Shown one piece after another: positions 7,589 to 54,334 of a stretch of 64,000 bases of DNA (its first letter is position 1; each line of letters opens with the position of its first letter). A program made the position numbers and the translations under genes. Source of the stretch: an uncultured Gammaproteobacteria bacterium. GTDB taxonomy: Bacteria; Patescibacteriota; Patescibacteriia; Buchananbacterales; UBA6539. The stretch is from assembly GCA_964540635.1 (NCBI GenBank), contig CAZINP010000003.1, positions 43,892 to 107,891 on the forward strand, read 5' to 3'. The notes under the pieces are model-generated. The model was not told the origin of the DNA and ran no database searches. It saw only the letters and a program-made list of their open reading frames with translations.

Positions 7589-7617
7589 TTGACAAAATTA
7601 ATTTTTCGTGCTAACAT
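7589..7617 (+). promoter_or_regulatory. promoter TTGACA-N17-TAACAT
   Basis: Consensus -35 and a weaker -10. Confidence 0.35.
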
Positions 7618-7619
7618 AG

Positions 7620-7779
7620 CATTGTTGATGCTAGGTTTACCCCTAGACCAAAATACGCTTCGTGGATATCGAAGCGTATTTTGTTTTATTTATACCGAAA
7701 GATAATATTGTAAAAAATTTTTATATTTGTTATTATATATTTGCGGTTGGGAAGCTAGCGCCCTAGCATCAACATTGTT
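7620..7779. repeat. 160-bp AT-rich element bounded by 16-bp terminal inverted repeats (MITE-like or structured RNA)
   Basis: cattgttgatgctagg at 7620-7635 and its reverse complement (1 mismatch) at 7764-7779. Confidence 0.3.
7624..7688 (+). ncRNA. candidate ~65-nt small RNA (two hairpins; the second is an intrinsic terminator)
   Basis: Downstream of the promoter: ctagg-tttacc-cctag hairpin, then aaatacgcttcg-tggata-cgaagcgtattt perfect 12-bp hairpin + T-run. Confidence 0.25.
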
Positions 7780-7813: not shown

Positions 7814-7842
7814 TTGACAAAAAAAACCAGCCATGCTATAAT
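7814..7842 (+). promoter_or_regulatory. perfect sigma70 consensus promoter TTGACA-N17-TATAAT
   Basis: Exact consensus hexamers with a 17-nt spacer. Confidence 0.55.
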
Positions 7843-7856
7843 GAATATGTATTGAG

Positions 7857-7880
7857 ATGGGCAGAAGCCTATCCTTTTTT
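7857..7880 (+). promoter_or_regulatory. promoter-proximal leader hairpin + U-run (copy 2 of the duplicated element)
   Basis: atgggc-agaa-gcctat followed by ccttttttat; about 19/22 identical to the element at 6552..6575. Confidence 0.3.
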
Positions 7881-8022
7881 ATTTTCTTTGCCTACGGGCA
7901 AGCGCTCCAACCAAAAAGAGAGCAATAAAAACAAAAGGCCCAATTGGGTAAAAAATTTGATCTTTAAAAACAAAACTAAAAAAATTACGGCTATACGCCG
8001 TAAGTAAAACAAAAACAAAAAT

Positions 8023-8220
8023 ATGGACTCAGTTCAACCTATTGCCACGCCGCAAGAGCCACAAGCCCAGTGCAGTCCTCAACCGTGTACGCCTAAAGCG
8101 TATAATGATTGGGAATTTGATATTGGACGAACATATTTGCTTTTGACGGCAACCTTAGTGATTCCGCTTTATCTCTCAATTTCTTTGATTGCGTTTTCAC
8201 TGGGTGGTTTGGTCGTATAA
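8023..8220 (+). CDS. possible small membrane protein (65 aa)
   Basis: ORF with a C-terminal TM helix between the consensus promoter and the terminator; no SD. Weak. Confidence 0.25.
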   Translation: MDSVQPIATPQEPQAQCSPQPCTPKAYNDWEFDIGRTYLLLTATLVIPLYLSISLIAFSLGGLVV

Positions 8221-13404: not shown

Positions 13405-14496
13405 TTATCTGGCTTTAATGTAATTTTGTCCACCCAAATTTTTGACCGAACCCTTTATCTCCATCATTGCGAGAGTGGAATTTACAACACTGATATTAAG
13501 CATACTTAATCTAATTATTTTGTCAACTGGTGTCGGTTCAAAACTAAGAAGGCTAAAAATTATTTTTTCCACTTCGTTGTCGGGAATAATTTGCGCTGCG
13601 CTTTGGAAAAACTTAGCCTCTTTTAGATTGAGTGTTTCAAGAATATCATTTGAGCTTTCCGTTAATACGGCGCCCTGTTTGATTAAAAAATTTGGCCCAG
13701 CTGACAGTGGATTGTAAATACTGCCCGGCACGGCAAAAACTTCGCGGTTTTGTTCCAAGGCATATTTGGCCGTAATCATGGCGCCGGATTTAACGTCGGC
13801 TTCTGTTATTAAAACGCCAAGACTTAGCCCGGAAATAATGCGGTTTCGTCTGGGGAAGTTGCTTTTAAATGGCCTTGTGCCAATTGGAAACTCGGAAATA
13901 ATCGCGCCGTCTTTTTCTATGATCTCTTTGGCCAAATTTTGATTCGCGCTCGGGTAGATTTTTTCTAGTCCACAGCCCAAAACGGCGATGGTTTTTTTGT
14001 TAACCCCAACTGCAGCTTGATGAGCCAAAGTATCTGTTCCTAAAGCCAAGCCGGAAACTATGCTTAAATTGTTTAAGGCCAAGTCCCTTGCCAGTTGAGT
14101 GGTTATCTGTTTGCCATATGAACTTATTTTTCGGGTACCGACAACGGCAAATGGAAAATCGTTTTCCAAATTTAATTTTCCCAAAACTTGAATCATAAAA
14201 GGTGGTTGATGTATTTCTTTGAGCAATTTTGGATAGTTAGAATCATCAAGCTCAATTATTTTAATGCCCAGTTTTTTAACTTTTTCTTCTTCATTTTCCG
14301 GCGAAATTTCTTTTCTTTGAGCAATAATCGTTTCGGCTGTTTTGGAATCAATTCCGGCCTTGGTGATTTCACCAAAATCAGCCTTCCAAAAGTTACGAAG
14401 ATCAAAAAAGTGTTTTTTTATTTTTTTATATCGGCTTGGTCCGATAGTGGTAATCTTGGCTATTCCAAGAAGATATTTTTGTTGATCGTCTTTCAT
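13405..14496 (-). CDS. dprA: DNA processing protein DprA/Smf
   Basis: Rossmann-like DprA core (VVGTRKISSYGKQ...SGLALGTDTLAHQAA...GAMITAKYALEQNREVFAVPG); classic smf-topA linkage. Confidence 0.85.
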   Translation of the reverse strand: MKDDQQKYLLGIAKITTIGPSRYKKIKKHFFDLRNFWKADFGEITKAGIDSKTAETIIAQRKEISPENEEEKVKKLGIKIIELDDSNYPKLLKEIHQPPFMIQVLGKLNLENDFPFAVVGTRKISSYGKQITTQLARDLALNNLSIVSGLALGTDTLAHQAAVGVNKKTIAVLGCGLEKIYPSANQNLAKEIIEKDGAIISEFPIGTRPFKSNFPRRNRIISGLSLGVLITEADVKSGAMITAKYALEQNREVFAVPGSIYNPLSAGPNFLIKQGAVLTESSNDILETLNLKEAKFFQSAAQIIPDNEVEKIIFSLLSFEPTPVDKIIRLSMLNISVVNSTLAMMEIKGSVKNLGGQNYIKAR

Positions 14497-14521
14497 ATAT
14501 ATAATTAATATTAAGTTAGTC

Positions 14522-14550
14522 TTGACAAAAGCCGTTTTTTCTGTTAAATT
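14522..14550 (+). promoter_or_regulatory. promoter TTGACA-N17-TAAATT
   Basis: Consensus -35, 17-nt spacer, AT-rich -10. Confidence 0.45.
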
Positions 14551-14557
14551 GATAAAT

Positions 14558-14702
14558 CTTCAAGAGCTTCCAGGGCTCTGTTTGCCAGCGGCAAAAGTAA
14601 GGTTAACCCTCCTAGCCAAACGATTAGCCAAAAAGCAAAGTTAAGAATGTCTTCTGACATTTGTGACTTTCGCTGGCAAGCAGTGTCCTGGGAGTTTTTT
14701 TT
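14558..14702 (+). ncRNA. candidate structured ~145-nt RNA with a 24-bp imperfect closing helix and a U8 tail (6S-like or SRP-RNA-like topology; identity unknown)
   Basis: 5' strand cttccagggctctgtttgccagcg (14567-14590) pairs with 3' strand cgctggcaagcagtgtcctgggag (14671-14694), 20/24 complementary. An internal hairpin atgtc-ttc-tgacat follows, then T8. No ORF. Confidence 0.35.
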
Positions 14703-14750
14703 AATTAAAAAACGCCCTTTGTCGGGCGCTATGTTGATTTTGTTGTTTTG

Positions 14751-15323
14751 TTAATTAAATTTGTTCATTGCTTTTTCCGGAGAATTAAGAATTGCTTCTT
14801 TGATGGCTAAAACTGTCGTTTGCAAGACGGGTCGTAATATCTTATCATTTTCTTTGCTGATTTTTTTCAAAACAAATTTTTCCGCTGGAATTTTGGTGGC
14901 AATTATCGGTTTGATGCCGATTCGAAAGCGGACGAATTCCTTGGTTCCTGTTTGGTTGATGATTGATTGTATCCCTTTATGGCCGCCGGCTGATGAATTT
15001 TTTGAAATTCTAATTTGACCCAGAGGCAAATCAAATTCGTCATGAATAATCCAAATGTCTTCTGGTTTGATTTTGTAAAATGAAGCCACGGCCAGAACAG
15101 ATTGGCCGGAAAGATTCATATACGTTTGAGGTTTAACCAAAATGACTTTTTCATCAATAATTTTACCCTCGCTGATTTCCGCTTTATATTTTTTAATTAA
15201 TTTTAAATCCGAAAAATTTTCTTTTTCGTCTTTTTTTATTTCATCCAAGGCTTGAAAGCCGACATTGTGCCAGGTTTTCTCGTATTCTTTGCCGGGGTTA
15301 CCCAGGCCGATGATTAATTTCAT
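14751..15323 (-). CDS. pth: peptidyl-tRNA hydrolase
   Basis: MKLIIGLGNPGKEYEKTWHNVGF Pth N-terminal signature; 190 aa. Confidence 0.9.
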   Translation of the reverse strand: MKLIIGLGNPGKEYEKTWHNVGFQALDEIKKDEKENFSDLKLIKKYKAEISEGKIIDEKVILVKPQTYMNLSGQSVLAVASFYKIKPEDIWIIHDEFDLPLGQIRISKNSSAGGHKGIQSIINQTGTKEFVRFRIGIKPIIATKIPAEKFVLKKISKENDKILRPVLQTTVLAIKEAILNSPEKAMNKFN

Positions 15324-16209: not shown

Positions 16210-17634
16210 TTATTTTTTTTCGTGAACTTTAACGTTGGTTACTTTAAGGTTAATTGGCGTGCCAATAAAGTCAAACCTTTCTCTGAGTTGATTTTCAATA
16301 AAGCGTAAGTAGGAAAAGTGAACAGAGTCATTGCGACCAATTGATAAATTAAATTGCGGCGGGTTGCTTTTGATTTGCTCCAAAGAGATAAGGCGCGGGG
16401 GATTTTGGCCCTTGGCTTGGGCCGGGTGCTGTTTTTTAACCAAGCCTTTCAGGATGGCGTCAAGCTCGGGCTGGTCGATGATTTTTTTGCGTTGATTGTT
16501 AACGGCCATAACCAAGTCTAAAATTTTATGAACGTTTTTTCCGGTTTGAGCCGAAATAAATATCAGGGGCGCAAAGCTTAAAAATGGAAAATGTCTTTGA
16601 TAGTATTTTAAAAATTTTGAATCGGTTTTTTCGTTTTTCTCTCCAATCAGATCCCATTTGTTTGCCACCACGATAATGCCGGCGCCGGCATCTTTTATCA
16701 TTCCGGCCAAATGCAAATCTTGAACCGTTAGCGGTTTATCGGCTTCGGTAACAAAGATGATGATATCAGCGGCCTTGATTAAGTTTAGTGAGCGGCGAGT
16801 GGAGAGCTTTTCCAGGCCGCGTTCAATTTTAGCTTTTTTGCGCAGCCCGGCCGTGTCAATGATTTCAATTTTTTGATCATTATAAATAATCTCAGTATCT
16901 TGCGGTTCGCGAGTGGTATGGGGAATAGGCGAGACAATTACGCGTTCTTCGCCTAAGATTGCATTTAGCAATGATGATTTCCCCACATTTGGTTTGCCGA
17001 TAATGGCGACTTTCAGGGCTCGGTTTTCGGCTTGGGTTTTTGGTCTGCCTTTTTGACCCTTAACCTTTTTTATCAACTCATCAAGCATATCGCCGGTTCC
17101 GGAACCATTTGCCGCTGAAACCGGCCAGGGTTTACCCAGACCTAATTTGTAGAATTCATTTAGGTTGGTGGCGTATTTTTGGCTGTCTACTTTATTGCTG
17201 ATTAAAAAAATCGGTTTTTTAATTTTTTTTAAAACCAAGGCGAGCTCTTTATCTTCCGGCATCAGACCGGTTTGACCGTCGGTAACCATTAAAATCATAT
17301 CCGCTTTCTGCATTGCCAGTTTGGTTTGTTTGACAATTTCTTTTTCAATTACGTCTTCGGGGAGAGATTCCAGAGATTTTTTGCCGGGCAAAAGCGATTG
17401 AATGCTGTGCTTGAGAGTATTGATGTTTATTCCGCCCGTATCAATTAATTCAAAATTTTTATTGCGCCAAGAAACCAGGCCAACATTATAATCTCTGGTC
17501 GTGCCTTCAATGTCTGAAACCAAAGCTCGGCCGGTTTCGGTTAGACGATTAAAAAGCATTGATTTACCCACATTAATTCGGCCGACAATAACAATCGTGG
17601 TGAGTTTTTTTTCAATTTTGAATTTTTTTTCCAT
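16210..17634 (-). CDS. der: ribosome-associated GTPase Der/EngA (tandem GTPase domains + KH-like C-terminus)
   Basis: Two P-loops (GRINVGKSMLFN and GKPNVGKSSLLN) with DTAG motifs after each. Confidence 0.9.
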   Translation of the reverse strand: MEKKFKIEKKLTTIVIVGRINVGKSMLFNRLTETGRALVSDIEGTTRDYNVGLVSWRNKNFELIDTGGININTLKHSIQSLLPGKKSLESLPEDVIEKEIVKQTKLAMQKADMILMVTDGQTGLMPEDKELALVLKKIKKPIFLISNKVDSQKYATNLNEFYKLGLGKPWPVSAANGSGTGDMLDELIKKVKGQKGRPKTQAENRALKVAIIGKPNVGKSSLLNAILGEERVIVSPIPHTTREPQDTEIIYNDQKIEIIDTAGLRKKAKIERGLEKLSTRRSLNLIKAADIIIFVTEADKPLTVQDLHLAGMIKDAGAGIIVVANKWDLIGEKNEKTDSKFLKYYQRHFPFLSFAPLIFISAQTGKNVHKILDLVMAVNNQRKKIIDQPELDAILKGLVKKQHPAQAKGQNPPRLISLEQIKSNPPQFNLSIGRNDSVHFSYLRFIENQLRERFDFIGTPINLKVTNVKVHEKK

Positions 17635-23185: not shown

Positions 23186-26100
23186 ATGTATAACTTTCAA
23201 AAAGGTTTTTGTTCCCCATTAAGAAATAAAAGGTCTAGAATCGCCCTGATTGTTTTCAGTATGGCGGTTTTATTTTTAGCCGGAATCGCCCCGGCTCTTG
23301 CTACGGACTATGGTTTAAGCTATGGCACTTATTTGGGCTTTGGGACCCAAGACTTGCGGGTTACCATCATGAATATTGTCCGGATATTTTTGGGTTTTTT
23401 GGGTATTATTGCCTTGCTTTTGGTAATTTATGCCGGTTGGCTTTGGATGAGTTCGGCGGGCAATGAAGAAAAAATTACTCAGGCCAAAAATATTTTAAGA
23501 AATACTTTGATTGGTTTGGCAATAATTATGTCAGCCTTTGCCATTGTCAGCTTTATCATTGTCATGCTTACCGGCGGCCTTGGCGGCAACGGCACGATTC
23601 CGGATGTTAACCCGCCGCCATCTGGCTGTGAAAACTGCGGCTACTTGGGGACAGGCATAATTGAAAGTGTTTACCCGGCCCCGATGTCAACTGATAATGA
23701 TCGCGATACAGCTATTATTGTTACCTTTAAAGAAGAAATCAGCCCGGATTCAGTTATTAATGGTGTATCCGCATCGGCTGTTTGCGGCGGTAATCCAAAT
23801 CCGTGCGCCGGCACTCTTAGGGAAATAAGTGGCGAGCCGGTTGTTAAGATATTTAAGCGCGCTGAAACTGAATCCGCTTTTATTCCGACGATTAACGTCA
23901 ATGTTGTTACGGTTGATAAAAAAACTTATCAATTTATCCCGCCGGTTCTAGGTGATTCAGTCAGTAAGAATTGGTATACCGTAAAGTTAACCAATGCCAT
24001 TAGCAAGGCTTCTGACGGCAGCAGTGCTTTTCCCGGTGTTAATAGTTATTTTTCATGGGATTTTGAAGTTGGCACGAAACTTGATGTTTTACCCCCAAAG
24101 ATTACCAGCGTTTTTCCTTATCCTGATAATAATGTTGATGATTATACGCCGGTGGCCGGCCAAAAAGCTCAAGGTTCTGTGGTTGTTGTTTCTCAGCCAA
24201 AAGTTAGTCGCGAACCAAGTGCAACTTTGAGTGTTATTGTTGGGGATACAGATATTGAGCTTAATGGTGTATACAATGGGACTTATGAGGGTACGGCAAC
24301 ATACACTGTTGGTCCAGACAGAACAACTGTTGGGGTTGTCTATAGTCCCACTCTAACCAATGGCGCCGCCTCATTTCCAATTGATAATATGAGAATCACT
24401 TTAGGCGTAGGTGTTAATGTTGTTTTTCAGGAAGACACCTTTGCCGCCGGCGATCAGTTTAGCATTTCTTTTGTGCCAAATACCGAAGCGGATGTTTTGC
24501 AGATTTCAAATAAAATATACAGATTTGTTTCCGGCACGCCCACGGGTGATCAAATTCAGGTTGGTTCAAATATTAATAATACGGCGGCCAATATTGCCAC
24601 CAAAATTCAAAGTGACGGCCAAGCGCCAAAGGTTAATGCCACGGCTTCAGGCGCGACGGTTAGCCTAACGGCTGATGTAGCCGGTTCGGCGGGTAATTAT
24701 ATTAATGTAGCCGGTTCCGGTACTTGGGCTACTATTACCAACTTTGGCGGCGGTGCTAATCAAACAACAAGCGCCGAATGCTCTGGTGCTTGCGATCAAC
24801 CGCGCAATTCGGTAATTAGGCTTGATTTCAGCGAAGGGATTATGCCTTCGGTTGCTTCCGGCAAAAATACAATTACCCAGGAGACAGGCTCGCCAACCGG
24901 TGTTGGTTCCGGACCAAGTTTTAATTATGTTACCGTGCAAGCTGATATAAATAATGACGGCACTTTTTCGTCTAACGAATATATTTCAGGTACATTTACC
25001 CAGAGTAATCAATATAAAACCGTTGAGTTTCTTTCTTTGCAGCCTTGTGCATCTGAGACTAGTGTTGTCACCAATTCTTGCGGTGACCCGATTTATTGTT
25101 TGCCAATCAGACCAAACGCTGACGCTACTCGCTATCGCGTGACCGTAAAGGCTTCATCGCTAAAAGGTTGTACGAATTCAAATGAGTGTTTGGGCTTAAA
25201 ATATGAAAGCGGCGAATTAACCGAAACCTGCACCACCATTCCAAAAGATAAGCAAAACCCCGCAACTACTGACAGGGCTTGCGGTAATAGTAACGGAATA
25301 TTCTATCCTAAAGCGGCAACCGCAATTGATGGTATCGCTGATTTGGCAAGTAATTCATTTGATGGTAATGGTAATGGTTTTTCTCAAGGAACCTTGACTC
25401 AAAGCTTGAGCTGGGCTTTTGCCTTGCATTTGCCAAACGTTACCCAGCGCTGTGATTTGCAGTCTTTGGCGCCGACAAATCCGGCAACAACGGGCCAGGT
25501 CGGTACTAACTGTACCGGCGATCCGGCAATTTGCATTGACGGTACCTGCCGTGATTTGGGCGATGATTTAATTTTTGATTTCTGGATTTCGAGCCGCATC
25601 GATTCCGGTTCGCCGGTAATCATAAAAGTAAATCCATCGGTGCAAGGTTCGGGTTCAAGTTTATTAAGTCCAATTTCTAGCTACTTTAATAAATTATTAA
25701 TGAGCAGCACGGTTAAATCCGGCACAGGCTATAAAGATGGTCGCTGTACTTGTACGGCTGATATTGATTGTGCGGATGCGGATCAAAAGTGTTTACCGGC
25801 CAACGGCACAGTTAAATATTGCGTAAACGTTAATAATCCTCAGATTTATTGTGCGGCCACAAATGAATGCAAAAAGACCGGTACTACTCAGGGATTTTCT
25901 CCGGCTTGTGAAACCAAGGAATACATTACGCTTGTTAACCCTACAACAATCGGTGTTGGTTGGTGGTTAAGCAATATTGGTCAAGATATTAGAATGTGTC
26001 TAAACGAAAGCAATAAATATAAAGAATGCACCGGCAATTCAGATTGCAACCCGGGTGGCGTTTGCTCTCAGGCCGACAGCTATTTTGACCGAAATTTAAT

Positions 26101-26329
26101 CCAGATAAATCACACCCGTTTTGCCGAATCAACCCAGTATGGTGCCAAGGTCGCATCGGGCGTTAAAGATATTTATCAGAATTGTTATATTCCCGGCAAA
26201 GGTCCGCAAGTGGAAAACTGTAATTATCCATATGGCACTAGTAATGGTTGTTGCGCGGTTACGGCTACAGGTGCCAATCCTCAACCGTTTTGCTGCAATG
26301 GTAATCCTCAAGACACACCTTGCAATTAG
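23186..26329 (+). CDS. giant secreted cysteine-rich surface protein 1 (1047 aa) with an N-terminal TrbC/VirB2-like pilin-type two-helix membrane module
   Basis: Signal peptide (cleavage near ALA-TDY), then two hydrophobic helices separated by SSAGNEEKITQAKN. About 1000 aa of extracellular Cys/Gly/Thr-rich sequence follows. The N-terminus is paralogous to that of the next gene. Confidence 0.8.
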   Translation: MYNFQKGFCSPLRNKRSRIALIVFSMAVLFLAGIAPALATDYGLSYGTYLGFGTQDLRVTIMNIVRIFLGFLGIIALLLVIYAGWLWMSSAGNEEKITQAKNILRNTLIGLAIIMSAFAIVSFIIVMLTGGLGGNGTIPDVNPPPSGCENCGYLGTGIIESVYPAPMSTDNDRDTAIIVTFKEEISPDSVINGVSASAVCGGNPNPCAGTLREISGEPVVKIFKRAETESAFIPTINVNVVTVDKKTYQFIPPVLGDSVSKNWYTVKLTNAISKASDGSSAFPGVNSYFSWDFEVGTKLDVLPPKITSVFPYPDNNVDDYTPVAGQKAQGSVVVVSQPKVSREPSATLSVIVGDTDIELNGVYNGTYEGTATYTVGPDRTTVGVVYSPTLTNGAASFPIDNMRITLGVGVNVVFQEDTFAAGDQFSISFVPNTEADVLQISNKIYRFVSGTPTGDQIQVGSNINNTAANIATKIQSDGQAPKVNATASGATVSLTADVAGSAGNYINVAGSGTWATITNFGGGANQTTSAECSGACDQPRNSVIRLDFSEGIMPSVASGKNTITQETGSPTGVGSGPSFNYVTVQADINNDGTFSSNEYISGTFTQSNQYKTVEFLSLQPCASETSVVTNSCGDPIYCLPIRPNADATRYRVTVKASSLKGCTNSNECLGLKYESGELTETCTTIPKDKQNPATTDRACGNSNGIFYPKAATAIDGIADLASNSFDGNGNGFSQGTLTQSLSWAFALHLPNVTQRCDLQSLAPTNPATTGQVGTNCTGDPAICIDGTCRDLGDDLIFDFWISSRIDSGSPVIIKVNPSVQGSGSSLLSPISSYFNKLLMSSTVKSGTGYKDGRCTCTADIDCADADQKCLPANGTVKYCVNVNNPQIYCAATNECKKTGTTQGFSPACETKEYITLVNPTTIGVGWWLSNIGQDIRMCLNESNKYKECTGNSDCNPGGVCSQADSYFDRNLIQINHTRFAESTQYGAKVASGVKDIYQNCYIPGKGPQVENCNYPYGTSNGCCAVTATGANPQPFCCNGNPQDTPCN

Positions 26330-26346: not shown

Positions 26347-29300
26347 ATGAAGCCTAAAACAAAAATAATCACCAAAAAAATTACTGTGCTGGCACTTTTT
26401 GCCATTGCCATTTTTGCGATTGCCCCCGTGGCTTTGGCTGCCGATTTTGGTTTGGGGTATGGGACGAATTTAGGGTTGGGTACTCAGGATTTGCGCGTGA
26501 CGATTATGAGAGTGGTTCAGGTAGCCTTAGGATTTTTAGGTATAATTGCCATCATATTGTTTATGTATGGCGGATGGCTTTATTTGTCTTCGGCCGGCAA
26601 TGAAGAAAAAATCAGCCGAGGCAAGCAAGTTTTAATTAATGCTGTTATTGGTTTGGTTATAATTTTTACTTCATTTGCCATTGTCAGTTTTATTATAAAT
26701 TTCTTGGGATCGGCAACCGGTTCCCAGCCGCCGCAGGGTTTTACATGTACGGCCAATCAATGTGTTTCTTGCGGTGTAAGGTGCAATGATACCGGCGATG
26801 GCTATGTTTCTACAAGTGATTGCTCAACCCAGGAATACTGTTCTGTCCCGCCAAACCCGGCCTGTCCGAAGCCAGATGATATTATTCCGACTATTTGCCG
26901 CATTGAGCCGGTTAGGGGAGTTGGTTTTGGTGGCGTACCTCAAGGTTACGTCGGTGATTTTGTAACAATTGAAGGTTGGTATTTAGGTATTTTTGAGTCG
27001 GGAGTCAGCCGGGTTAAATTTGATGAAACCGAGGCTTCAATTGCCACTTGTGATAACAATCCGATTTGGTATACCAACGCTAATCGCTATAGCATTATCA
27101 GGGCAATTGTCCCTTCAATTGAATTGGGTACGACAAATGTTTTAATTGAAACAAGCGCTTCTCTTACCAGCAATACAAAACCGTTTATAGTAATTGAAGG
27201 AAATCCCGGTCCCGGCTTGGCCTGCTTGATTCCGCCGAACGGAAAGAACAACGACCTTTTAACCAAAGCCGAAGGTGTTCGTTTTGGTGATGATCCGGAT
27301 ATTTTAGGTGGCTTATTCTTTAATGACAATCAAAAATCAACTTTTGTTTCTTGGTCGGATGAGATTATTAGTCAGCCAACAGTTCCGGCGAATGCGGTTT
27401 CCGGTCAGGTTTATGTTAAAGACGCTGACGGCATTCAAAGCAATGGCGTCTGGTTTACGGTTAGTTGTACCGAGAATAGCAGTTGTGCCAGTGGCTGTTG
27501 CAAGAGCTTTATGTGTCAGCCTGATTCGGCTTGCCAATCGGGCGTGGGCGAAAGTTGTGATAACGATATCAACACGACCAATTGTGAGCCCGGATCAAAT
27601 TGTGCCGATGGTTTAGTTTGTAACAGTAATAGTTGTCTTTGTGATTTACCCGGATATGATCAACCGTGTGATACAAATTTAGATTTGCCACTTTGCCAAG
27701 GTGGCAGTTGTGCGGCGGGTTATTATTGCCAAGAATCAACTTGTACCTGTCAGGAGATTCCAACTTACGGCGAGCCGATTATTTACGGCTTTACGCCAAC
27801 GAGCGGCGCAGTTGGGACTTATGTGACAATTTCCGGCGGTAATTTTGGTCCAAATAAAACTTCAGCGGCCGGTCATGTTTATTTTATTGAAGGTGCGAAT
27901 AAGGTTGAAGCCGATTATACATTAATTAAAGAATGCGCCGATACTTTTTGGCACAATACTCAAATCGTCGTTAAGGTGCCGGCCGGTTTAGTTAACGGCA
28001 ATCAATATATTATTGAGGTTGAAAATAGCGAAGGGAAATTTGATACTTCCGGCTTAAACCCCTCCGTCTTTACGGTTGATGAAAATTTAATTCGTCCGAA
28101 TATTTGTAAGATTACTCCAGACAACGGACCTATTTATCAAGATGTAGAAATCTACGGCGAAAATCTTAACCCGAGCGCTGCGCCAGTCAGCAGTGTCATA
28201 TTTTCGTCAAATGTTGTTCAGAGTAATTTCACTTTATCTACCAATGACATCTTTGCTTCTGTTCCGGCCGGGTCAGTTTCCGGTTTGGTAAAAGCTAAAA
28301 ACAGCAAAGACAATGAGAGTAATGGTTTGTATTTTCAGGTCGGTGCTTGCGTAGTTGGCGGTTGTCAGTCCGGCTATGAGTGCTGCCAGGGTGGCAGATA
28401 CAACTTAAGTTGTATGCCCGAAGGCGGTTGTTATGCGGCAGTCAGTAATTCGTCTTATGATTGGACTTTTACCACCGGCGCCAGACCGGGGAATTGTTCA
28501 AATGATTCAGGTATTTGTATTCCCAATAATGATATGTGTTCGGCCGGTTATACTTGCGATACTCAAACTTGTAATTGCACCCCAACCGGCACGTTTAATT
28601 GCAGTAATAAAGCTTATCCGGTTTGCGAGCCAAACAGTGATCTTTGTCCCGATAATCAGTTTTGCGGCGCAACTTGTACTTGTTTAGCTAAGATCCCATG
28701 CGATGGCAATGTCGCCACCCCGGCTTGTCAGCCAAGCGACGACATTTGCCGCAGTGTTGACTCAAGCCTTTCTTGTGACCCAGAGACTTGTTATTGTGAT
28801 ACCGGATTTAGCGCCACAAAGGCAGCTTATGATTGGACTTTTAATTCTTACACCGAAGGTCCGCAAGTGGTTGATGAATGTAATCGTACTCCCGAATGTG
28901 CCAAGGTTTGTGCCAACGACAGATCGATTACCTGTTCTCAAGACAGTGATTGTGGTGCTGACGGGCCGTGCATCAAAGCCTTTTCCAGTCCTTCGCCAAA
29001 GTATAATCGTGACGGTGAGGTTTATGCCAATTCTCAAATCAGCGTTAGTTTTGACCAAGAGATTCTACCAAGCACCGTTAATTCAAATACCATAAAATTG
29101 TATCGTTGCAATCAAGACTCCGGGTTTTTAAGCGCCAGTTGTTCGGTTATAACTGTTAGTAGTTATTTAGTTTTTGATTGGGATTACGGAATAATTGATG
29201 CTAATGGTGTAATCATCAACCCAGTCAACTCATTAGAAGCGGGTTATTGGTATAAAGCGGAAGTAACCGCCGGTGTCATCGGTCGCAACGGGTTTGCTGC

Positions 29301-32300
29301 CGCTCCTTATTCTTGGCTCTTCAAAATAAAAGCCGGAACAGGCAGTGTTGGCTGTGCGACTTGCCAACCGGGTTATGCTACATTATTTGCTCGATATGAC
29401 GGCAACTGCAGTGGAGTGGGTGATCCCGACTGTCAACCTTACCTTGGTCAGGCTTGGGATCAAGATCACGTTTGTGTCATGTTGAAACCTGAAACTTTAA
29501 CCTGGAATTGGAATTTGTTAAATGAAACCGATAAACGAGCTTCAATATTTAACAGAGCAACGTCGCAACCGGCTTATCCAAACGACGAAGATGCTTATCT
29601 TTCAAGTGTGAGCGGCCAGGGCTTTGATGTTATTGATGTTTATGCCAGAAAGGAAACTTTGACTAATCCGGTTAAGGTGGCTACGGAAATTAATGGTTTG
29701 CCGTCTCAAGCCTATCAGTATGGTGAAAATATTTGCGATTTAAGCGTTGATTTATCAACTCCGATTGTTGTTAAGCGCTGGCCGGATTGTAATGGCGCTT
29801 GTACAAACGCTTCTGTTGGGGCGGCTTTTTCCATCCCCATGAATTCAAGCTCAATTACCGCCAGCGGAGCGGTTGTGCTTTATGCTTGTGCGGATAATGC
29901 CAATTGTCGGCCCGGTTATGGTGTTTGCAGTGTTACCGGCAACTACTGTAATGCGGCCAAAGGAACCGGTTGTGGTACGGGTGAGACCTGCCAGGCCCTT
30001 GATTACGATCAAGTAAGTGTCCCGCTAAACTTTAACCAGCTAGGTGCGGTTGTTAATGGTTATGCGAATTCTTATTTGGCTGATTCGCCCTGTTTTGATA
30101 TAAACGCTGACGGAAAAACCGATTATTGTCTTTTACCAAACACCTATTATAGAGTTATTTTACGAAATACGATTGAAGCAACCAATGGTAAAAAATTAGG
30201 TAAATTAAATTATGACGATGCCCTATATAACGGTTTGAGTGAGCTAGGAATTAAAGATTCTTATTCTTGGGTTTTCAGAACTCAGGATAATATGTGCGCC
30301 CCCGGCCGAATTTCAGTTCAGCCGGAAGAAAGACATATGAGTATTTATGAGGTGCAAAAATACGCTTCTTATCCTTACACCTCGCCGGATAGCTGTGATG
30401 CCCAGGGCCAGCCGTTGATTGCCGCAAGTTTCGTCTGGGAATGGCAATCAAAATATTGCCAGATCGCCGATTTGTTTTCATCTTCATATGGTGGTTATTT
30501 AAATACTCACACCTTTTTTGCGGTGCCTCCCGGTTGCACTAAAGTGACCAGCCAGTACGCTACTTTACGCAGCGGTTGCGGTAATGGTGTTGTTGGCTTG
30601 GGTGAAGATTGTGATGATGGCAACATTTTCAATCAAGATGGTTGCAGTTCAACCTGTCTTAACGAAGGTGTTAGTACAATGCCGAATTATAATTTTTCAT
30701 TTGACGGCATTCCAACAATTTCGTCAAACACCAATGAATTTCCATTTGAAAGTACTTCATTTTCTTTGCTTAGAAATTATCCCCTAAATGGCACTGCCAG
30801 ATCGGGTTTTGGTTCAAGTCAAAATTTAGGTGTAAATAATAGTGGTGTTATTTATGCTCAATCAGACAATGGCCGATCCGGCCTAATGAGAGATAATTGG
30901 GTTAGTGCTGATCATTATTTTGTCAGTGCAAACATTAAACTTCCTCAGAATACTGAAAATATAAATGATGTTGGTTTAATTTTTGGCTATCTCAGTAATA
31001 ATAGCAATTATTTTGCTGCAATCTGGTCAAGCCTTGGTTATTCAGCCATGGCTGACTATCAGCAATTAAAGATAATTAAAGCCGCAAGTGGCCTGCCGCA
31101 AAGTGTTGCTAATACGCAAAAGATTCCGGCCGATCAAAATTGGCACGAAATTAAAGTTGAAGTCATTAATTATGATTTTTCAGCGGATATAAAATTATAT
31201 TTTGATGATAATTTGTATTTAACTTACAAATCAAATACTAGGGTTGTGGGTAATGCCGGTATTTATGCTTATGATACTGATGGTCAGGTTTTATTTGATA
31301 ATCTAAAAATTTACGGGGATGATTTGCCGATTTGCGGCAATGGCATTTTAGAGAAGGGCGAAGAGTGCGAAAAAGATCAAGCTGGAAATTTTGGACCTTA
31401 TTGCACCTTGGGTTGCTTAAATAGTGGAAACGCCGCTTCCGGTGCGGTTTGCGGCAATGGCGTGGTTGAGCCGGGCGAAGAATGCGACAATGGCAACGAG
31501 CCTAATAATAATGAGGCTGACGGTTGTACCAATACTTGTATTTTAAGTGGCTTTACTCTTTCAAATATGTGTGGCAACGGCATCGTTGATAAAGGAGAGG
31601 CTTGCGATAACGGTGACTTTACCAGATACACCTGCCTTAATAATCCAAGTCAGGTTTGTGATCCCAATGATGATACGGCCTGTGGTAATCAGAAAGCTCT
31701 TTGCACTAATCGGGCCAAGTCTGGCGATGGGTGCACCGGTTATTATCAAAGCGTCGCTTTTCCGGAGAATATTTCGGGGCACAGTTGCAGCACGATGACT
31801 GAAACTCAATGTAAAACTTTTTCGGAAACATCAAGTGATAATCACGCTAAGTATTGCTATTGGACTGGTACCGAGTGTCGCATTAGGCCTTGTATTTCAG
31901 AAACCAGCACGGCTCAAGGCAACGACCGCTATGACATTTCCATCTGCGGCAATGGATTGGTGGAGGCTGGTGAAGAGTGTGACTATGGTTCTCTTTGCCA
32001 AACGTCTTACGGCGGGGTGGCAAGATGCACTTCATTAAATGCTTCAACGGTTTGCGCTTCGGGTATTTGCGGCCAGGGGGTTTGTCAGGCAAAAACTTCA
32101 ACTGGATATATTACTAATCAATACGTTGCATGTACCGAGGAAAACGCCGGTGATCTTTGCTATTCCGGCTCTTGTGAGTTGCCGGCAAATTCTTATCTGC
32201 CAGGGTGTACTTCAAATTGTTTAAACGCCGGCTCTGTTTCTGATAATCGGTCACACCAAATCGCTCAAGGCTTAGCTGACGGTCAAACCGAGGTCCAAGC

Positions 32301-35300
32301 TTGGACAAGCGAATTTAAGCCCAGTAGCGGCGGTCCGATGGGAATTGGTAAATTATTTGTTGGCGCTTGGGGTCAGCCGGAAGATTTCTATGTCATTGAT
32401 CAATGGCCAAATTGTTTCACGGCCTGCTTAAACGCTGATATTGGCGCCCAATTCAGCCAATATGTTAATACCGCTTCGCTTACTACTTCAGATAATATCA
32501 AGCTTTATGAGTGCCGCACCGATTCGGGTTGCAATTTGGCTAATGCGACCAAAATATCCGGTTTAAGCGTTATCCCATTTACGATTAAGACCAATTCGGA
32601 TAATCGTATTGATGCGGTTCAACTTTTATTGCCAAATTCTTATAATCCGGTTAACCACGATAATAATCCGTCGACCGCCCCAATTCCGGCACTATTGCCT
32701 GATAGTTATTATCGCGTGGTAATAAGCAAAAATGTCAGGACCGATTCCAATCCGCCAAAGAATTTACAGTATTTAAACTTTAACGACCCAACCGTTGGCT
32801 CCGGTACGGAAAATGATTCATACTCATGGGTTTTCAAAACTCAAAACAAAAATAATTTCTGCGCCCTATCCAGTGTAAAGGTTTTGCCGCAAACCTGGCA
32901 GATGTTTACCGGTAACAAGAGACAATTATATTTCTCACGGCCGATAAGTAAGCCGGATGAATGTTCGGTTAATGGTCAACTTTTGAATCCTTTCTATTTT
33001 GATTGGCGCTGGGATGATGTAGAAATGTCTCAAGATAATGGCAACTTTATCAATGGTGCTGATATATTAATTGACACTTTGGATGAGTTTCTTAAAAAAG
33101 TTATAAATGGTGGAACTCTACCGACGACACCCCCAACCGCTGGCGGATACCTTAAGGACGGTTGTGGTAATGGGGTGGTTGAGTTTGGCGAAGATTGCGA
33201 CCCGGGTTTGCAGTCCATTGAGGGTTGTTCCAATACCTGTCAGCACGCCGGCAGTGGCGCCTGTAGCCCGACGGTAAGTACCAATTGTTGCGGCAATTCA
33301 ATTATTGAACCGGGCGAAGAATGTGAACCTTTTGTTAATGGCGGTTTTTGCACCAGCAATGGTTTGCTGTGTGATCCTTTTCTTGATCCAAACTCTTGTC
33401 CTGGGGGTACCTGTTTATATTTATGTGATAGTAGATGTAGGTTTGCCGGCAATACAAATACCCAAGCCAATTGCGGCGACGGCGTGATTTCACCTATCGA
33501 AATTTGCGACGGTAAACTCGGAGATGATAGCGACGGTTGTTCTGATTATTGCCAACCTTCAGGTGCTGTACCCGCAACCGGCTCAACCTGCGGCAATGGG
33601 ATTATTGAAAAAGGAGAAGAATGCGATGGTGGGGAACTTGCTTCGGGCAATATACCTTTAAGTTTTGATGGTAATAATTGTTCGGGAATCAAAAATAAAA
33701 CCGGCGTAAGCGGCGGTTGCACCAATTATTCAACCGAAACTCAATGCCAGTCTTGGAAGGGTTGTTATTGGAGTGGTAATGAATGTAAACATCGGCCTTG
33801 TATTATTGAGAATCGAAATGTCGCCGTCTGTCGGAATAGTGAAAATTTATCCGTTGATTTCAAACAAAATTATAATGCCTGTAAACCGGGTTATACGTCT
33901 ATTTTTCTAAATACTTTGACCGGAACCTCATTAACCAATCGACCGGTTTGCGGCAATGGCGTGGTTGAGCCGGGCGAAGAATGCGATTTGGGCGGCTGGT
34001 GTATTGATGAAGAAACCAATAATTTTAAGACTTGTACAACTTACAATGCAGTCGGTTGTCGCAACAATATCTGCTTAACTTACAGTTACTATTGTTCGGT
34101 TGATGGTTTGCCCATAGATGGTGCTACCACACTTGGCGCCTGCAGTGCCGAAGGTATTTGCGATAGCAATAAAAATTGTGTTGTTGCCGGTCCCGGTGGT
34201 TCAGAAATAGAATATCCCAAGTCAACATGCACGACAATTGGCGCGGCATGCTCTATTTCCGGGACGGGATATGTCAATGGCTGCTCAAGTAATTGTGTGT
34301 ATAATGGTTCGCGTTATGATGATGGCATTAACGATCCGTATCAAATTGTTCAGTCGGTTGGTGTTTTTTCTAACACTGTTTTGACGGAGGTAAATGAAGA
34401 AATTCGCGCTTGGCACGCTTTGCAACCTGATAGAGTCGGGGTGGGCGAATTAACGATTTTGGCCAGCGCCAACGTACCGTTTACGGTTGTTGGCCATCAG
34501 CCAAAAGCAAGGGGTCTTGATCCAACTAATCAGTGCCGTAACGTCGGCATCTGGGCAATTTTGTCCAGACCGCTTGATGCAACATCTGTTACCGCTGAAA
34601 ATTTATATTTGGGCAAGCAAGGTGTTGAGGATAATCTTATCAAGAGCTATTCGGTTTTACCGGTTTCCGGGTCCTGCAATGAAAATCACCGCTGTGTTTA
34701 TCCTGGTGCGGAAGATAGTCCACTGGAAACCAGTTATTGTTATGTAAATTCCGACTGTGTCGGCAGTAAGATTGTAATAAATGAAATTGAAGGTGTTTAT
34801 TTGGATGGTAATTCTTCTTATGTATTACGTTTTAAACAAAGTTTGAAGGCTCAAGACGGCTCAAATTTGCAGGAGTTAAACTATTCAGACCAAGATCTGA
34901 AAAATTATACAATTTGGGGTTTTGATACAAGCGCTGATTTCTGTTCGTGCAATTATGTTGGTGTCAATATATTAAACACCACCGGGCAGGCTTTTACCAC
35001 CAAGGATTATTTCACTTGTGCCGGTGATAATTGCGGGTCAAATACTTATAAAGTTTTATTTGATGACGACTACAAGCCAAAAGCAATGTGTCGTTTGTCC
35101 GGGCAGGAAGCTAAATTTGCTTGTGACACTTCAAAATCTGCTGTTGATCAATGTGGTACCGGTGGCACCTGCAGTCTTTATAGCGCTATGGCCGGCAATC
35201 AGCATTTGTACAATGCCAACTGTTATGATACCGAATATTCGGAAGGCACAGATATTCCGGTTGGTTTGGGAACTGCTTATGATTTTGCTGAAATTGATCC

Positions 35301-38300
35301 GCAAAAATTAATTTATTTAACAGGAGTTGACGAAAAGACCGTTGACTGTACAAATGTTAATGGTCAGTGTTTGGTTACGCCGGGTGATAATCAGGTTCCG
35401 GCCGGAAAAAATGGTGATTCGCAAGTTATGGTTTCGGGCAAACAATATATGGATAATAACAATCAGATTTGTACCCCAACAGAAGCCAATGCTCAAACTT
35501 GCCTATTGCGTCGGTCAGCTCACCAAACCATTGATATCACCAATTTTATTTGTGATAATCCTTGGCCGGCTCTTGGATCTTTCCCGTATACAGACAGTAA
35601 TGCCAGCGGCAACTCGCCGACAAACAGCGTTACGCCATATTATAATTTCACCATGTATTATTGCCGCGATTACGGCAAAGAAGGTTTTGATGACGATTTG
35701 CCGTCGTTAAATATCAATGGGCCGGTTTTTGGCAGCCGCGGTGATGTCCTAAAAGAATTTTTATTCCCGGTTGGAACCGATGTGGTTATTAATGCCCCCG
35801 GTTCACCAAAGAGGGGTGTTGATTTCTTGAGCAATGACTGCACTCAGGCCGGTATGGGTGGTATCGTGCCAAGCAATACCGATGCTTATCGGTGCAATGT
35901 TAATTCCCATTTCCGTTATAAATTTACGGGCGTGGAGAAGGGTTACTATAAATTAGTCTACCAAACTTATAATTACGGTTCGGGCAGCATGAATTCTCTG
36001 GATTTATATGGTTTGAAGATGTGTGATAAAAATAAAAATGGTTATATAAATACCGGCGGGGCAACCGGGGAAACAACTCCTTGCAACACTCAGGCTGATT
36101 GTGCCAGCTTGGGAACGGGCATTGCCTGCTTGCCGGTAACTCAAGAAATTGATGTATATCACGTTAATGTTAACGATACAGTTCCGATTGCAAGAATATC
36201 AGCTATACCGCGCGCATACGACAATATGCAGTCAAATGAAGTGCCGGTGTTATTAGAGGCGGGTGATCACACTTTTAGATTTAGATGGATTAATGATTGG
36301 AATGTAACAGTAGATGGTAAATATTATGATTCTAATTTGATTATCAATAAGGTTTCATTGATTAAAGTTGAAAATGAAGCAACTTCAGATGCAATCGGCT
36401 TAAGAATTTTACCAAATACGCTGCATCTTTCCGCCTCAACTTGGTATAATACCGGCCTTTGCGGCGCCCAAGTTGGCAGTGGTGTAGAGAATATTTGTTA
36501 TAGCAACAATGATTGCGCCGGCATTAATTTGTTTAAGAACGCAAACTTTGAAGATACAACAAAGCCTTGGGTTTATGAATATAACACGCTTTCGCCAAAT
36601 GTTTACCATAATCAGCCCGGTGAAATTATTGCCGGTGGCAGAAGTGGCAAAGCCGATAAACTTGCTGGTCAAAGCACGGTAACAACCTGGGGTTATCAAA
36701 TAAAATATCCTTCCCCGTTTGATTTGCCGGCAGGAAACTACGTCTATTCGGCTTGGATAAAATCACAAGACGGTGGAAAGGTTGGGATCACGGTTCAAGA
36801 AACAACCGGCTGGAGCCATTTATGCAGCAATAAAGATTGCACGATTAGGGGTGATTCAGTCGTCTGTGCCAATACTGATAACGAGTGGCATAAAGTTACT
36901 TGTACTTTTAGTTTGGCAAAAAAGACACAGGTTCAAATGGCCGTTAGAGCCGACGATGAGGCTAAAACCTTTTTGGTTGATGACGTCTCTCTCACGACGG
37001 GTTGCAATTTTAATTTGCCAAGCCGCGGCACAGCCCAACCTTTGACTTTTGACGGATACAACGCCGCTTCAGACGGCAGAAGCTTATACGTTAATGCCAC
37101 TAATTTTAACGGCACCAATTTGTTTTCAAACATTTTCTTATTATCGTATACTCAAAACGCCAGCGAAAGTACGAAGGAAATCTTCAGGCGTTTATCTGAT
37201 CAAACCAATACTTTGGGCGGCTTGAGCTTTAATGCCAATATGACCAGCCATCGCCTTTGCAGTGGCGTTGGTTTGTACGAGAAGACAAGCTTTATTTGTA
37301 ATCAAGTCGGCGTTGCCACCGATTGCCGTGGATATAACAGTCAATCGCTTTGCGAAAGCGAAGCAAACTTAAAGAATGGCTGTTACTGGAGTGAAACCGA
37401 TAAAATTTGCAGCGGCCGCATGTGTTTGCCGATTTATTGTCAAAGTGATAAAGACTGCCCGAATTTAATTTGCGATAATCAAAAGGGCGGAGCAGTCAGG
37501 GATAATTTGCGTTTCGGCAATTTGCGCGATATGCAGCTGACTTTGGAAAGAAGTTATAAATCAAACGGCAGCTATCCTAAGTTATCAGCCGGTACCTATA
37601 TAGCGTCCACTACTTTTGCGGTTTGGCCGTCTTGGCAGGCAACCTTGGGCAGTGGAATCGGCAGCACCTTGCCTTCTGATCCGTTAAATTATTTTACCGG
37701 TTGTGTGGCCAGTTATTGCGACACCAATGAAAACGGTACACTTGAAACCGCTGAAACCACTTCTTGCTTGCCCTATAATGTTACTTCCTGCAATAACAAG
37801 CCTCAAAATTGTTTGCCGACCGAAGTTGATCCGGATAGAGTAAAAACCTGCTGGGACGAAAAGGCTAAAGAATTTTCTTGCCCGCAAGAAATGTACACTT
37901 ATGCTTATCGTTCAAGTGAAGGCGGCAAGGAGTATGAACTTTATACCAATTTTGAATTTATAACTTCCGGCTGGGTGAGTAACGCCACCGGCTATCAATT
38001 GCCTTTTTATGGCACGCAAGAATGCAAGAAATTAAATTTTGAAATACATCAAACCAGAGATAGGGTTTCAACCCCAATTGAAGATTCCAGCTGTGCCATT
38101 AAGCATTGCTGGGGAGCCTCAGGTATTTTAACCGGCTTAAGGGACGGTTGGACCTATGGTCAGAACAACACAAATGATTGCGAAGGTACCAGGCCGGCGT
38201 GTCCAAGCGGTTATCGCTGTACCGGTGATGCTGATTCGGACGGAGTTTGTGATGAAGGCTTGAGTGATAATTGCGCACCTCTTTTGATGTGTTCGGCTAA

Positions 38301-54122: not shown

Positions 54123-54149
54123 TAAAAACACATTAAAAACTTGTTTGAA

Positions 54150-54334
54150 TTTTCCGAAGCGAGGTGAGAGTCCTCCACTGGTCCGCAACTGTGAAGTTTT
54201 AGCCAAAAGCTAAAAATAAGTCAGGTCGCGAAAATTCAGACGCTAACACTTAACTCTTCGAGATCAAGAGTTGGTGGCCTGGCCGTTTGTCGCGGCTTGT
54301 TGCCCCGACTCCCTCGAAAAAGGGAGATTTTTTT
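54150..54334 (+). promoter_or_regulatory. candidate cobalamin riboswitch with SD-sequestering intrinsic terminator
   Basis: cGAAGCGAGGTGAGAGTCC resembles the AGGGAAgccGGTGAAAATCC core. cCACTGGTCCGCAACTGTGAAG resembles GGTCCCGCCACTGTaa. A B12-box-like AGTCAGG follows. The platform hairpin ctccct-cgaaaa-agggag + T7 abuts the ATG, and the SD (agggag) is its 3' arm. Confidence 0.45.

Follow-up and report, generated by a model that had tools for sequence, protein, structure and literature searches.

A candidate clade-specific structured RNA gene with a conserved CCCUCC loop between pth and dprA of Patescibacteria

Results

The gap between pth and dprA

The window analysed here (the whole stretch of 64,000 nucleotides, to which all positions refer unless a locus is named) belongs to contig CAZINP010000003.1 of an uncultured bacterium that GTDB places among the Buchananbacterales of the Patescibacteriota. 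Two minus strand genes, dprA and pth, leave between them a gap of 254 nt (14497-14750), and this gap is the site of the element reported here, a predicted plus strand gene for a structured non-coding RNA of about 145 nt. The RNA gene is antisense to the row that flanks it; in the window the wider minus strand row comprises lytR, der, an acyltransferase-like gene, pth, dprA, a folC-like gene and topA. Since pth has its own terminator hairpin (14730-14711, minus strand), which delimits the RNA on that side, the element is not simply the pth terminator. It is single-copy, no further copy being found in the 64-kb window.

Promoter, transcript ends and strand

A first-pass annotation, made by a model from the letters alone, had proposed at this place a promoter-to-U-tail RNA resembling 6S RNA or the RNA of the signal recognition particle (SRP). 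The promoter that it placed at 14522-14550 holds up, being near consensus and having a TG ahead of its -10 box, and so does the terminal run of eight U (14695-14702). The window has 5 exact matches to TTGACW-N14-TGNTANNNT where 0.06 would be expected, and one of them drives rpsU, a bS21-like gene, so that the pattern appears to be the strong-promoter consensus of the organism. In the relatives described below, TTGAC(A/T)-N14-TGnTAnnnT precedes 22 of the 23 homologs with enough upstream sequence, the distance from the end of the promoter to the start of the structure being 5-20 nt in 20 homologs, 38 nt in L014 and 84 nt in L048. Behind the closing helix, nearly all homologs carry a tract of five to eight T.

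The plus strand is the better folded one: the reverse strand reaches -49.3 kcal/mol only, 18 kcal/mol less than the plus strand. Many conserved G-U pairs are found in the helices, and they would become A-C mismatches in a minus strand transcript, which argues for the plus orientation. A covariance model built from six homologs gives scores of 90-153 bits on the plus orientation against 20-45 bits on the reverse (141.9 and 38.5 bits respectively for the window copy). The segment is thus a predicted independent plus strand RNA gene, running from promoter to U tail, and its product is probably stable and abundant.

A long closing helix around a three-way junction

Folded as plus strand RNA, the segment 14558-14702 has a minimum free energy of -67.2 kcal/mol, compared with -36.4 +/- 3.8 kcal/mol for shuffled sequences (z = -8.1), and none of 200 shuffles is as good. 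Its ends are inverted arms of 29 nt (14562-14590 and 14671-14699), 79% Watson-Crick complementary and 80 nt apart, that form a nearly continuous helix of about 28 bp once G-U pairs are counted; two hairpins occupy the interior of the predicted fold. The paired ends around an interior of about 80 nt, as first proposed, are therefore borne out. Applied to six sequences, RNAalifold gives a three-way junction, whose parts are listed in Table 1: the closing helix P1, in which U14577 faces U14684 unpaired; a first arm, P2; a second arm, P3, which is followed by a junction of a single nucleotide (J3/1). The inner part of P1 reads CUGUUUGCCAGC / GCUGGYARRCAG.

The sole internal loop of the RNA, in P2, has the strands GAA//AGUA; by their sequence, we read them as a bulged-G motif (loop-E or sarcin-ricin) whose G is replaced by U or C in several homologs. 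A K-turn was also envisaged for this loop and rejected on sequence, no conserved tandem G-A following a 3-nt bulge. The apical loops are N-CCCUCC-(U), of 7-8 nt, on P2 and a variable U-rich loop on P3.

Table 1. Coordinates of the RNA gene, its predicted structural parts and neighbouring genes (window positions, or positions in the locus named)
Feature	Positions	Strand	Basis or remark
Promoter: -35 TTGACA 14522-14527, 17-nt spacer, TAAATT 14545-14550; extended -10 TGtTAAATT 14542-14550	14522-14550	+	10/12 match plus TG
Predicted primary transcript, ~147 nt	14556-14702	+	5' end from promoter geometry; 3' end within U8
P1, 5' strand: outer half 14562-14576 variable, covarying; inner half 14578-14589 CUGUUUGCCAGC nearly invariant	14562-14589	+	28-pair helix 1
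P2 arm	14590-14629	+	Covariation, consensus fold
P2 base helix GGC/GCC, stacked directly on P1	14590-92 / 14627-29	+	C-G to U-A covariation at 14592/14627
P2 internal loop: GAA//AGUA in most relatives, AAAA//GAUUA in window	14593-96 // 14622-26	+	
P2a	14597-98 / 14620-21	+	
P2b GGUUA/UAGCC	14601-05 / 14613-17	+	
Apical C-rich loop ACCCUCC; CCCUCC core invariant	14606-14612	+	Unpaired probability 0.97-1.0
J2/3, single-stranded junction, about 8 nt, consensus A-C/A-AAGCU	14630-14636	+	
P3 arm: conserved base, UAAG../..CUUA-type helix 14637-42 / 14665-70	14637-14670	+	
P3 distal hairpin, variable, fully covarying, U-rich loop	14646-52 / 14655-61	+	
P1, 3' strand: inner CGCUGGCAAGCAG, then outer half	14672-14699	+	Pairs with 14562-14589
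U8 tract, candidate intrinsic-terminator tail directly behind P1	14695-14702	+	Sequence; T5-T8 in nearly all homologs
pth intrinsic terminator, separate from the RNA	14711-14730	-	Hairpin and U tract
dprA	13405-14496	-	Pfam DNA_processg_A, E 4e-76
pth	14751-15323	-	Pfam Pept_tRNA_hydro, E 3e-61
Accessory genes beside the RNA gene in relatives	L042:1547-2751, L050:3376-3955, L026:3580-4251, L028:5928-6663, L005:2163-2429, L039:842-1099, L043:10162-10461		

Homologs and synteny

Homologs were sought on contigs encoding proteins that match DprA, and nine RNA sequences were located by synteny alone. A pattern drawn from the first alignment was then scanned against metagenomes and gave 32 matches, i.e. 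18 further homologous loci, 2 re-finds and 12 chance matches in unrelated genes that were dropped (L013, 17, 18, 20, 21, 25, 30, 31, 35, 38, 40, 41). In all, RNA homologs lie at the same location in about 25 metagenomic relatives. The best DprA matches are metagenomic proteins of 49-67% identity, plus a twin at 99%, and those bearing a name are labelled Candidatus Buchananbacteria, Falkowbacteria, Uhrbacteria or "Patescibacteria group".

The conserved row is lytR-der-pth-[RNA]-dprA-folC-topA. The RNA is convergent with pth in all homologs and divergent from dprA in most, and it remains intact where extra genes split it from either neighbour. In every lineage examined but one, the gap between pth and dprA holds the RNA; the exception, L053, has a DprA 43% identical and a different synteny, and the RNA is absent from it. 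A DprA-based scan of genome contigs brought a single distant locus from Saccharibacteria (L001), without RNA homolog. The analysis covered 64 kb of the present genome and, for the relatives, syntenic pieces, in each case under 10% of a genome. Within this sample, the family is restricted to a clade of Patescibacteria whose DprA proteins have their best matches among those labelled Buchanan-, Falkow- and Uhrbacteria.

Covariation and the conserved core

Over 21 distinct sequences, 96.0% of the cells are paired and 25 of the 50 pairs show compensatory changes; pairing falls to 33-50% when the 3' partners are slid, and 0 of 500 shuffles reach the observed value. The nine sequences found by synteny alone tell the same: 93.9% of cells paired, 34-46% after sliding, 0 of 500 shuffles at the observed level and compensatory changes at 36 of the 50 pairs, so that the structure proposed from one sequence is now met with covariation in its relatives. 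In this synteny-only set, P1 shows compensatory changes at 17 of its 28 pairs with 93.7% of cells paired, and helices 4 and 5, in the P3 arm, at all 11 of theirs. The inner part of P1 is almost invariant among close relatives; in the Uhrbacteria-like copy it covaries, G-C changing to A-U, C-G to U-A and U-G to C-G.

The two most divergent copies come from contigs whose DprA is labelled Uhrbacteria (L048, 59 bits) and Falkowbacteria (L044, 48 bits). Most of their helices have diverged; they still have the long closing helix, a first arm with GAA//(G)AGU(A), the apical loop UCCCUCCU and a second hairpin. CCCUCC is identical in 9 of the 9 synteny-only homologs, these two included, and GAA//AGU(A) is kept in all nine while the flanking helices change sequence. 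In the predicted fold, the P2 arm is thus a conserved module made of the GAA//AGUA loop and an apical loop of 7-8 nt with invariant CCCUCC(U).

Search for a known family

We compared the sequences with the 4227 families of Rfam 15 by cmscan. At gathering score, the whole window gave tRNAs and one AdoCbl riboswitch only, with no match at the RNA element, nor was this element matched in about 200 kb of related loci. No ffs, the canonical SRP RNA gene, turned up in these sequences either, but they span too little of a genome for this to be informative. Lowering the threshold to E<=10 on the 301-nt region of the locus and on 10 homologous loci brought no consistent family match, 6S (RF00013) and SRP (RF00169/RF01854) included. 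A literature search found no description of this RNA, nor of any lineage-specific regulatory or housekeeping RNA in the candidate phyla radiation (CPR) or Patescibacteria. Of the first-pass annotation, the structured RNA gene from promoter to U tail stands, its promoter, terminator and fold being conserved, while the 6S or SRP identity is not supported, for lack of any Rfam match and in view of the three-way junction. The predicted RNA would found a family absent from Rfam 15: a clade-specific structured small RNA, most probably neither 6S nor SRP.

Collections of viruses, phages and plasmids contain no match to the RNA element either.

The CCCUCC loop and Shine-Dalgarno sequences

The 3' end of the 16S rRNA of E. 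coli is ACCUCCU, to which the ACC(C)UCCU of the predicted apical loop may be compared: the CCCUCC loop resembles an anti-Shine-Dalgarno sequence. Shine-Dalgarno (SD) sequences are lacking from the host genes of the window. Of its 41 open reading frames (ORFs) of 150 aa or more, none has GGAGG upstream; their upstream regions are A/T-rich (e.g. 13405-14496, 14751-15323 and 16210-17634, all minus strand), and GGAGGG is found 7 times in the window against 17 expected. The anti-SD motif of 16S rRNA is reported to be undetectable in about half of the Parcubacteria (PMC9297842).

In several relatives, small accessory genes adjoin the RNA gene, mostly just upstream and on the same strand, and these have strong SDs (AGGAGGG, GAGGAGG), unlike the housekeeping genes. 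GGAGG-type sites are therefore essentially absent from the organism's own genes, as seen in the window, and present on accessory genes; near starts in the window and in about 200 kb of related loci, sites complementary to the loop occur only at such SD-bearing accessory genes. The proteins are small and belong to no convincing Pfam or PHROG family (weak matches, best E 0.0011), and they have no viral relatives. One pair recurs, made of a protein with "..R(S)NGE(Q/E)V..IPxYNARF" and another with "LIxRLxxDxRGAxxLSQ". Genes for four-helix bundles of the 23S_rRNA_IVP type were also seen between pth and the 3' end of the RNA, at L050:2656-3048 (Pfam PF05635) and, judged from sequence only, at L037:297-671 and L028:6970-7332. 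The flanks of the RNA look like an insertion hotspot, and the SD-bearing accessory genes beside it may reflect nothing more than that.

Discussion

Readings without an RNA acting in trans

The gap lies between convergent and divergent units, so that one could think of an element acting in cis: one that insulates pth from dprA or terminates transcription in both directions, or else an antisense RNA that pairs with transcripts reading through from pth into dprA. The A-rich 5' and U-rich 3' flanks can indeed terminate both ways, and a candidate dprA promoter of the opposite strand overlaps with the -35 of the RNA. The first-pass annotation itself had allowed that the region be merely the bidirectional terminator of pth, with no structure conserved in relatives. 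However, pth has a separate terminator, and the interior arms, the loop sequence and the dedicated strong promoter are all conserved, none of which a terminator or a simple antisense RNA would need; besides, the RNA stays intact when extra genes part it from dprA or pth. We hold a purely cis-acting role to be very unlikely. A coding role fares no better. The segment had been called ORF-less; this needs qualifying, since it is overlapped by three mechanical ORFs (40, 38 and 35 aa), but none of them is conserved in relatives. With all frames translated in the relatives, stops break the frames and no start codon is conserved; the three small ORFs were also run against Pfam, and coding potential was rejected. 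The 38-aa ORF (14660..14544, minus strand, MSEDILNFAFWLIVWLGGLTLLLPLANRALEALEDLSI) deserves mention, for its hydrophobic product looks like a single-pass membrane peptide encoded antisense to the RNA, as in a type I toxin-antitoxin pair in which the plus strand RNA would be the antitoxin. Against this, the start codon is gone in L003 and L005, stops or frameshifts occur in most homologs, the hydrophobicity is lost, and substitutions track base pairs rather than codons. Only the window and its 99% twin L002 have this ORF intact, so that it is most likely fortuitous, and a small-protein gene or toxin-antitoxin pair here has hardly any probability in our eyes. Still less credible is a mobile or repeat element, be it a miniature inverted-repeat transposable element or the msr-msd RNA of a retron. 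Terminal inverted repeats of about 28 nt, an a1-hairpin-hairpin-a2 layout like that of retron RNAs and flanks that are an insertion hotspot in relatives would fit; but the element is single-copy in the window and keeps one fixed syntenic position across the clade, with no reverse transcriptase or transposase within 10 kb on either side (no RVT domain over that distance in the window, L007 and L009).

Among RNAs acting in trans, a highly divergent 6S RNA would mimic open promoter DNA and sequester the sigma-70 holoenzyme. The two share their length class (about 150 nt), a long closing stem of paired termini, a strong promoter and an independent gene. In 6S RNA, a central bubble whose 5' strand is single-stranded over about 10-15 nt lies between the closing and terminal stems; in the predicted fold, the 5' strand passes from P1 into P2 with 0 unpaired nucleotides, which leaves no such bubble and no template strand for product RNA (pRNA), the interior consisting of two well-paired arms on a three-way junction. 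Neither RF00013 nor 6S-Flavo matched at E<=10, in the window or in 10 homologs, and we give this identity very little chance. A divergent SRP (4.5S) RNA would likewise have paired, rod-like termini, and CUCUGUUUgCCAG / ARRCAG (a short CUGUUU/ARRCAG segment) resembles CUCUGUUUACCAG / AGGCAG, which we take to be a segment of helix 5 in E. coli 4.5S RNA; we regard this as a lead only, not as a feature of membership. In our RNA, though, that segment sits in a perfect helix rather than in an asymmetric loop; the fold is branched instead of a single hairpin and is without domain IV, i.e. the GNRA tetraloop, the symmetric and asymmetric loops and the GGAAG..AGCA motif are all missing, the apical loops being CCCUCC and a variable U-rich one; and neither RF00169 nor RF01854 matched. 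An SRP RNA is thus scarcely to be expected here.

Proposed function and its weighing

With moderate confidence, we propose that the segment is a stand-alone gene for a new, clade-specific structured non-coding RNA of about 145 nt that acts in trans through its CCCUCC loop. The sigma-70-type promoter with its extended -10 would yield a plus strand transcript that would fold into the three-way junction. P1 and the U tract would make up an intrinsic terminator and stabilise the RNA, P1 probably also protecting the ends or acting as a processing stem. The P2 arm would be the working module of this trans-acting RNA, its single-stranded CCCUCC loop pairing with purine tracts of the GGAGG type, i.e. 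SD-like sites. Such pairing is the mechanism that we prefer, if only tentatively.

Almost as likely, and therefore itself rather doubtful, the loop and the GAA//AGUA motif would form a docking site for a protein, e.g. for a reader of the CCUCC 3' tail of 16S rRNA. The RNA would then be a ribonucleoprotein scaffold, or would sequester a protein, with GAA//AGUA, the C-rich loop and inner P1 read by one or several proteins and no RNA-RNA pairing at all; the protein bound might be one that recognises the 16S 3' tail, with the RNA as a mimic or decoy of that tail. This option, unlikely taken by itself, draws on the invariance that reaches past the loop to inner P1, the junctions and the base of P3, on the loop-E-type motif conserved beside the loop across three lineages, and on the likeness of ACC(C)UCCU to the 16S 3' end (that of E. 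coli). On the other side, no candidate protein co-occurs nearby, the flanking genes being ordinary housekeeping ones, and each RNA has one putative binding site, in contrast with sponge RNAs of the CsrB kind. That inner P1 and the junction hardly vary speaks for a protein partner; that the single-stranded loop is invariant speaks for pairing.

Several points weigh against the pairing RNA that we propose. The near-invariant 12 bp of P1 and the junction are more typical of protein-bound housekeeping RNAs than of base-pairing small RNAs. No conserved housekeeping target of the loop was found, whether TAGGAGGGTT and GGAGGG were looked for in the window or GGAGG near starts in the window and in about 200 kb of related loci, i.e. 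in less than 10% of any genome; as for the SDs of accessory genes, their match with the loop is trivial, CCUCC being complementary to any SD. The 18 homologs of the pattern scan were retrieved with a pattern forcing TGTTTGCCAGCGG and CCCTCCTA, so that their invariance there is by construction and the claims of conservation rest on the nine synteny-derived sequences. Besides, the transcript ends, the abundance and any processing of the RNA are predictions.

A bolder idea, which we think improbable, is that of an orphan anti-SD module: an abundant small RNA would show CCUCC in trans in a lineage that has abandoned SD-led initiation. The RNA might then capture foreign or accessory mRNAs that bear an SD, either silencing or selectively licensing them; it might mimic the 16S 3' tail and so titrate a factor of ribosome biogenesis or initiation; or it might be a functional stand-in for the anti-SD that has been lost from the 16S rRNA in part of the Parcubacteria (PMC9297842). 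Any of these options, if true, would be a previously undescribed organisation of translation initiation.

Whatever its partner, the RNA has a strong promoter, covariation and clade-wide conservation, which make it a concrete new gene to annotate and to seek in metatranscriptomes; it may also give access to a so far unknown ribonucleoprotein. The CPR, or Patescibacteria, are ultra-small bacteria with tiny genomes and account for a large part of bacterial diversity. The anti-SD-like loop, the SD-less genes of the window and the anti-SD loss reported in related lineages lead together to a testable proposal, that of an RNA acting in trans on SD-type signals, those of foreign genes included.

Other observations on the locus and the window

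On the minus strand, a candidate dprA promoter (TTGTCA-16-AATTAT, 14501-14528) stands back to back with the RNA promoter, the two -35 boxes overlapping (14522-14527 for that of the RNA). Its -10 ends 5 nt ahead of the dprA ATG, which suggests a leaderless dprA mRNA; by inspection, its spacing is not kept in L003. On the other side of the gap, a 14-nt motif, AUCAACRUAGCGCC, is conserved about 13 nt past the pth stop codon (14725-14738, minus strand, AUCAACAUAGCGCC in the window). In many relatives it is the 5' half of the stem of the pth terminator, and its sequence conservation is unusually high for a terminator; it is also present 3' of dprA in L009 (near 11191), L010, L034 and L037 (near 2099).

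Elsewhere in the window, a second ORF-less unit (7589-7700, plus strand) has the same strong promoter at 7589-7617, followed by a predicted RNA of about 65 nt (about 7623-7690). It contains a small hairpin, GGUUUACCCCUAGACC, similar to the C-rich hairpin of the RNA studied here, and a strong terminator comes next (-25.3 kcal/mol, z -5.2). The 5' end of the unit repeats 7757-7775 in inverted orientation, and Rfam holds no match to it. A third strong promoter (7814-7842, plus strand) is followed at once by the hairpin GAUGGGC-AGAA-GCCUAUC and six U; this unit (7814-7890), upstream of a 65-aa ORF (8023-8220), could be a tiny RNA or an attenuator. The AdoCbl (cobalamin) riboswitch mentioned above (54129-54280, plus strand; 54.5 bits for a gathering score of 50) precedes an ORF of 592 aa (54335-56113). 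Lastly, a giant single ORF of 5637 aa (26347-43260, plus strand) comes after one of 1047 aa (23186-26329).

Comparison with known RNAs

Apart from 6S and SRP RNA, discussed above, three kinds of RNA invite comparison. The topology, and only the topology, is that of 5S rRNA (RF00001), namely a three-way junction that joins a terminal helix to two arms, about 43 and 35 nt long; likewise, a loop-E-type motif and a C-rich hairpin loop are combined in one of the arms, and without outer P1 the core measures about 108 nt, similar to 5S rRNA of Parcubacteria. Here, however, GAA//AGUA is in the 5' arm and in the opposite orientation, neither CCGAAC nor GAUGGUA/GAGAGUA is found, and the gene lies outside an rRNA operon. 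A 5S rRNA was rejected on these absent or misplaced motifs, on the lack of any RF00001 match at E<=10, and because canonical 5S genes are reported for CPR (630 genes; PMC9297842).

With Y RNA and its bacterial form YrlA, associated with Ro or Rsr, our RNA shares a modular build: its 5' and 3' ends pair in a conserved stem, a pyrimidine-rich loop belongs to an effector domain, and a U tail closes the 3' end; it differs by having no tRNA-like domain, no Rfam match and no rsr (TROVE) gene nearby.

The small RNAs with C-rich loops, RsaE/RoxS of Firmicutes, Yfr1 of cyanobacteria and the csRNAs of streptococci, have no sequence or covariance-model similarity to the present one, which is far more structured, with a closing helix of 28 bp, a three-way junction and an S-turn-like loop, and has only one C-rich motif; and as the host genes are without SD sequences, the usual class of targets of these RNAs would be missing here. 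These too are stand-alone RNAs from promoter to terminator, in which an invariant unpaired C/U-rich motif, complementary to ribosome-binding sites of the GGAGG type, is the most conserved single-stranded element.

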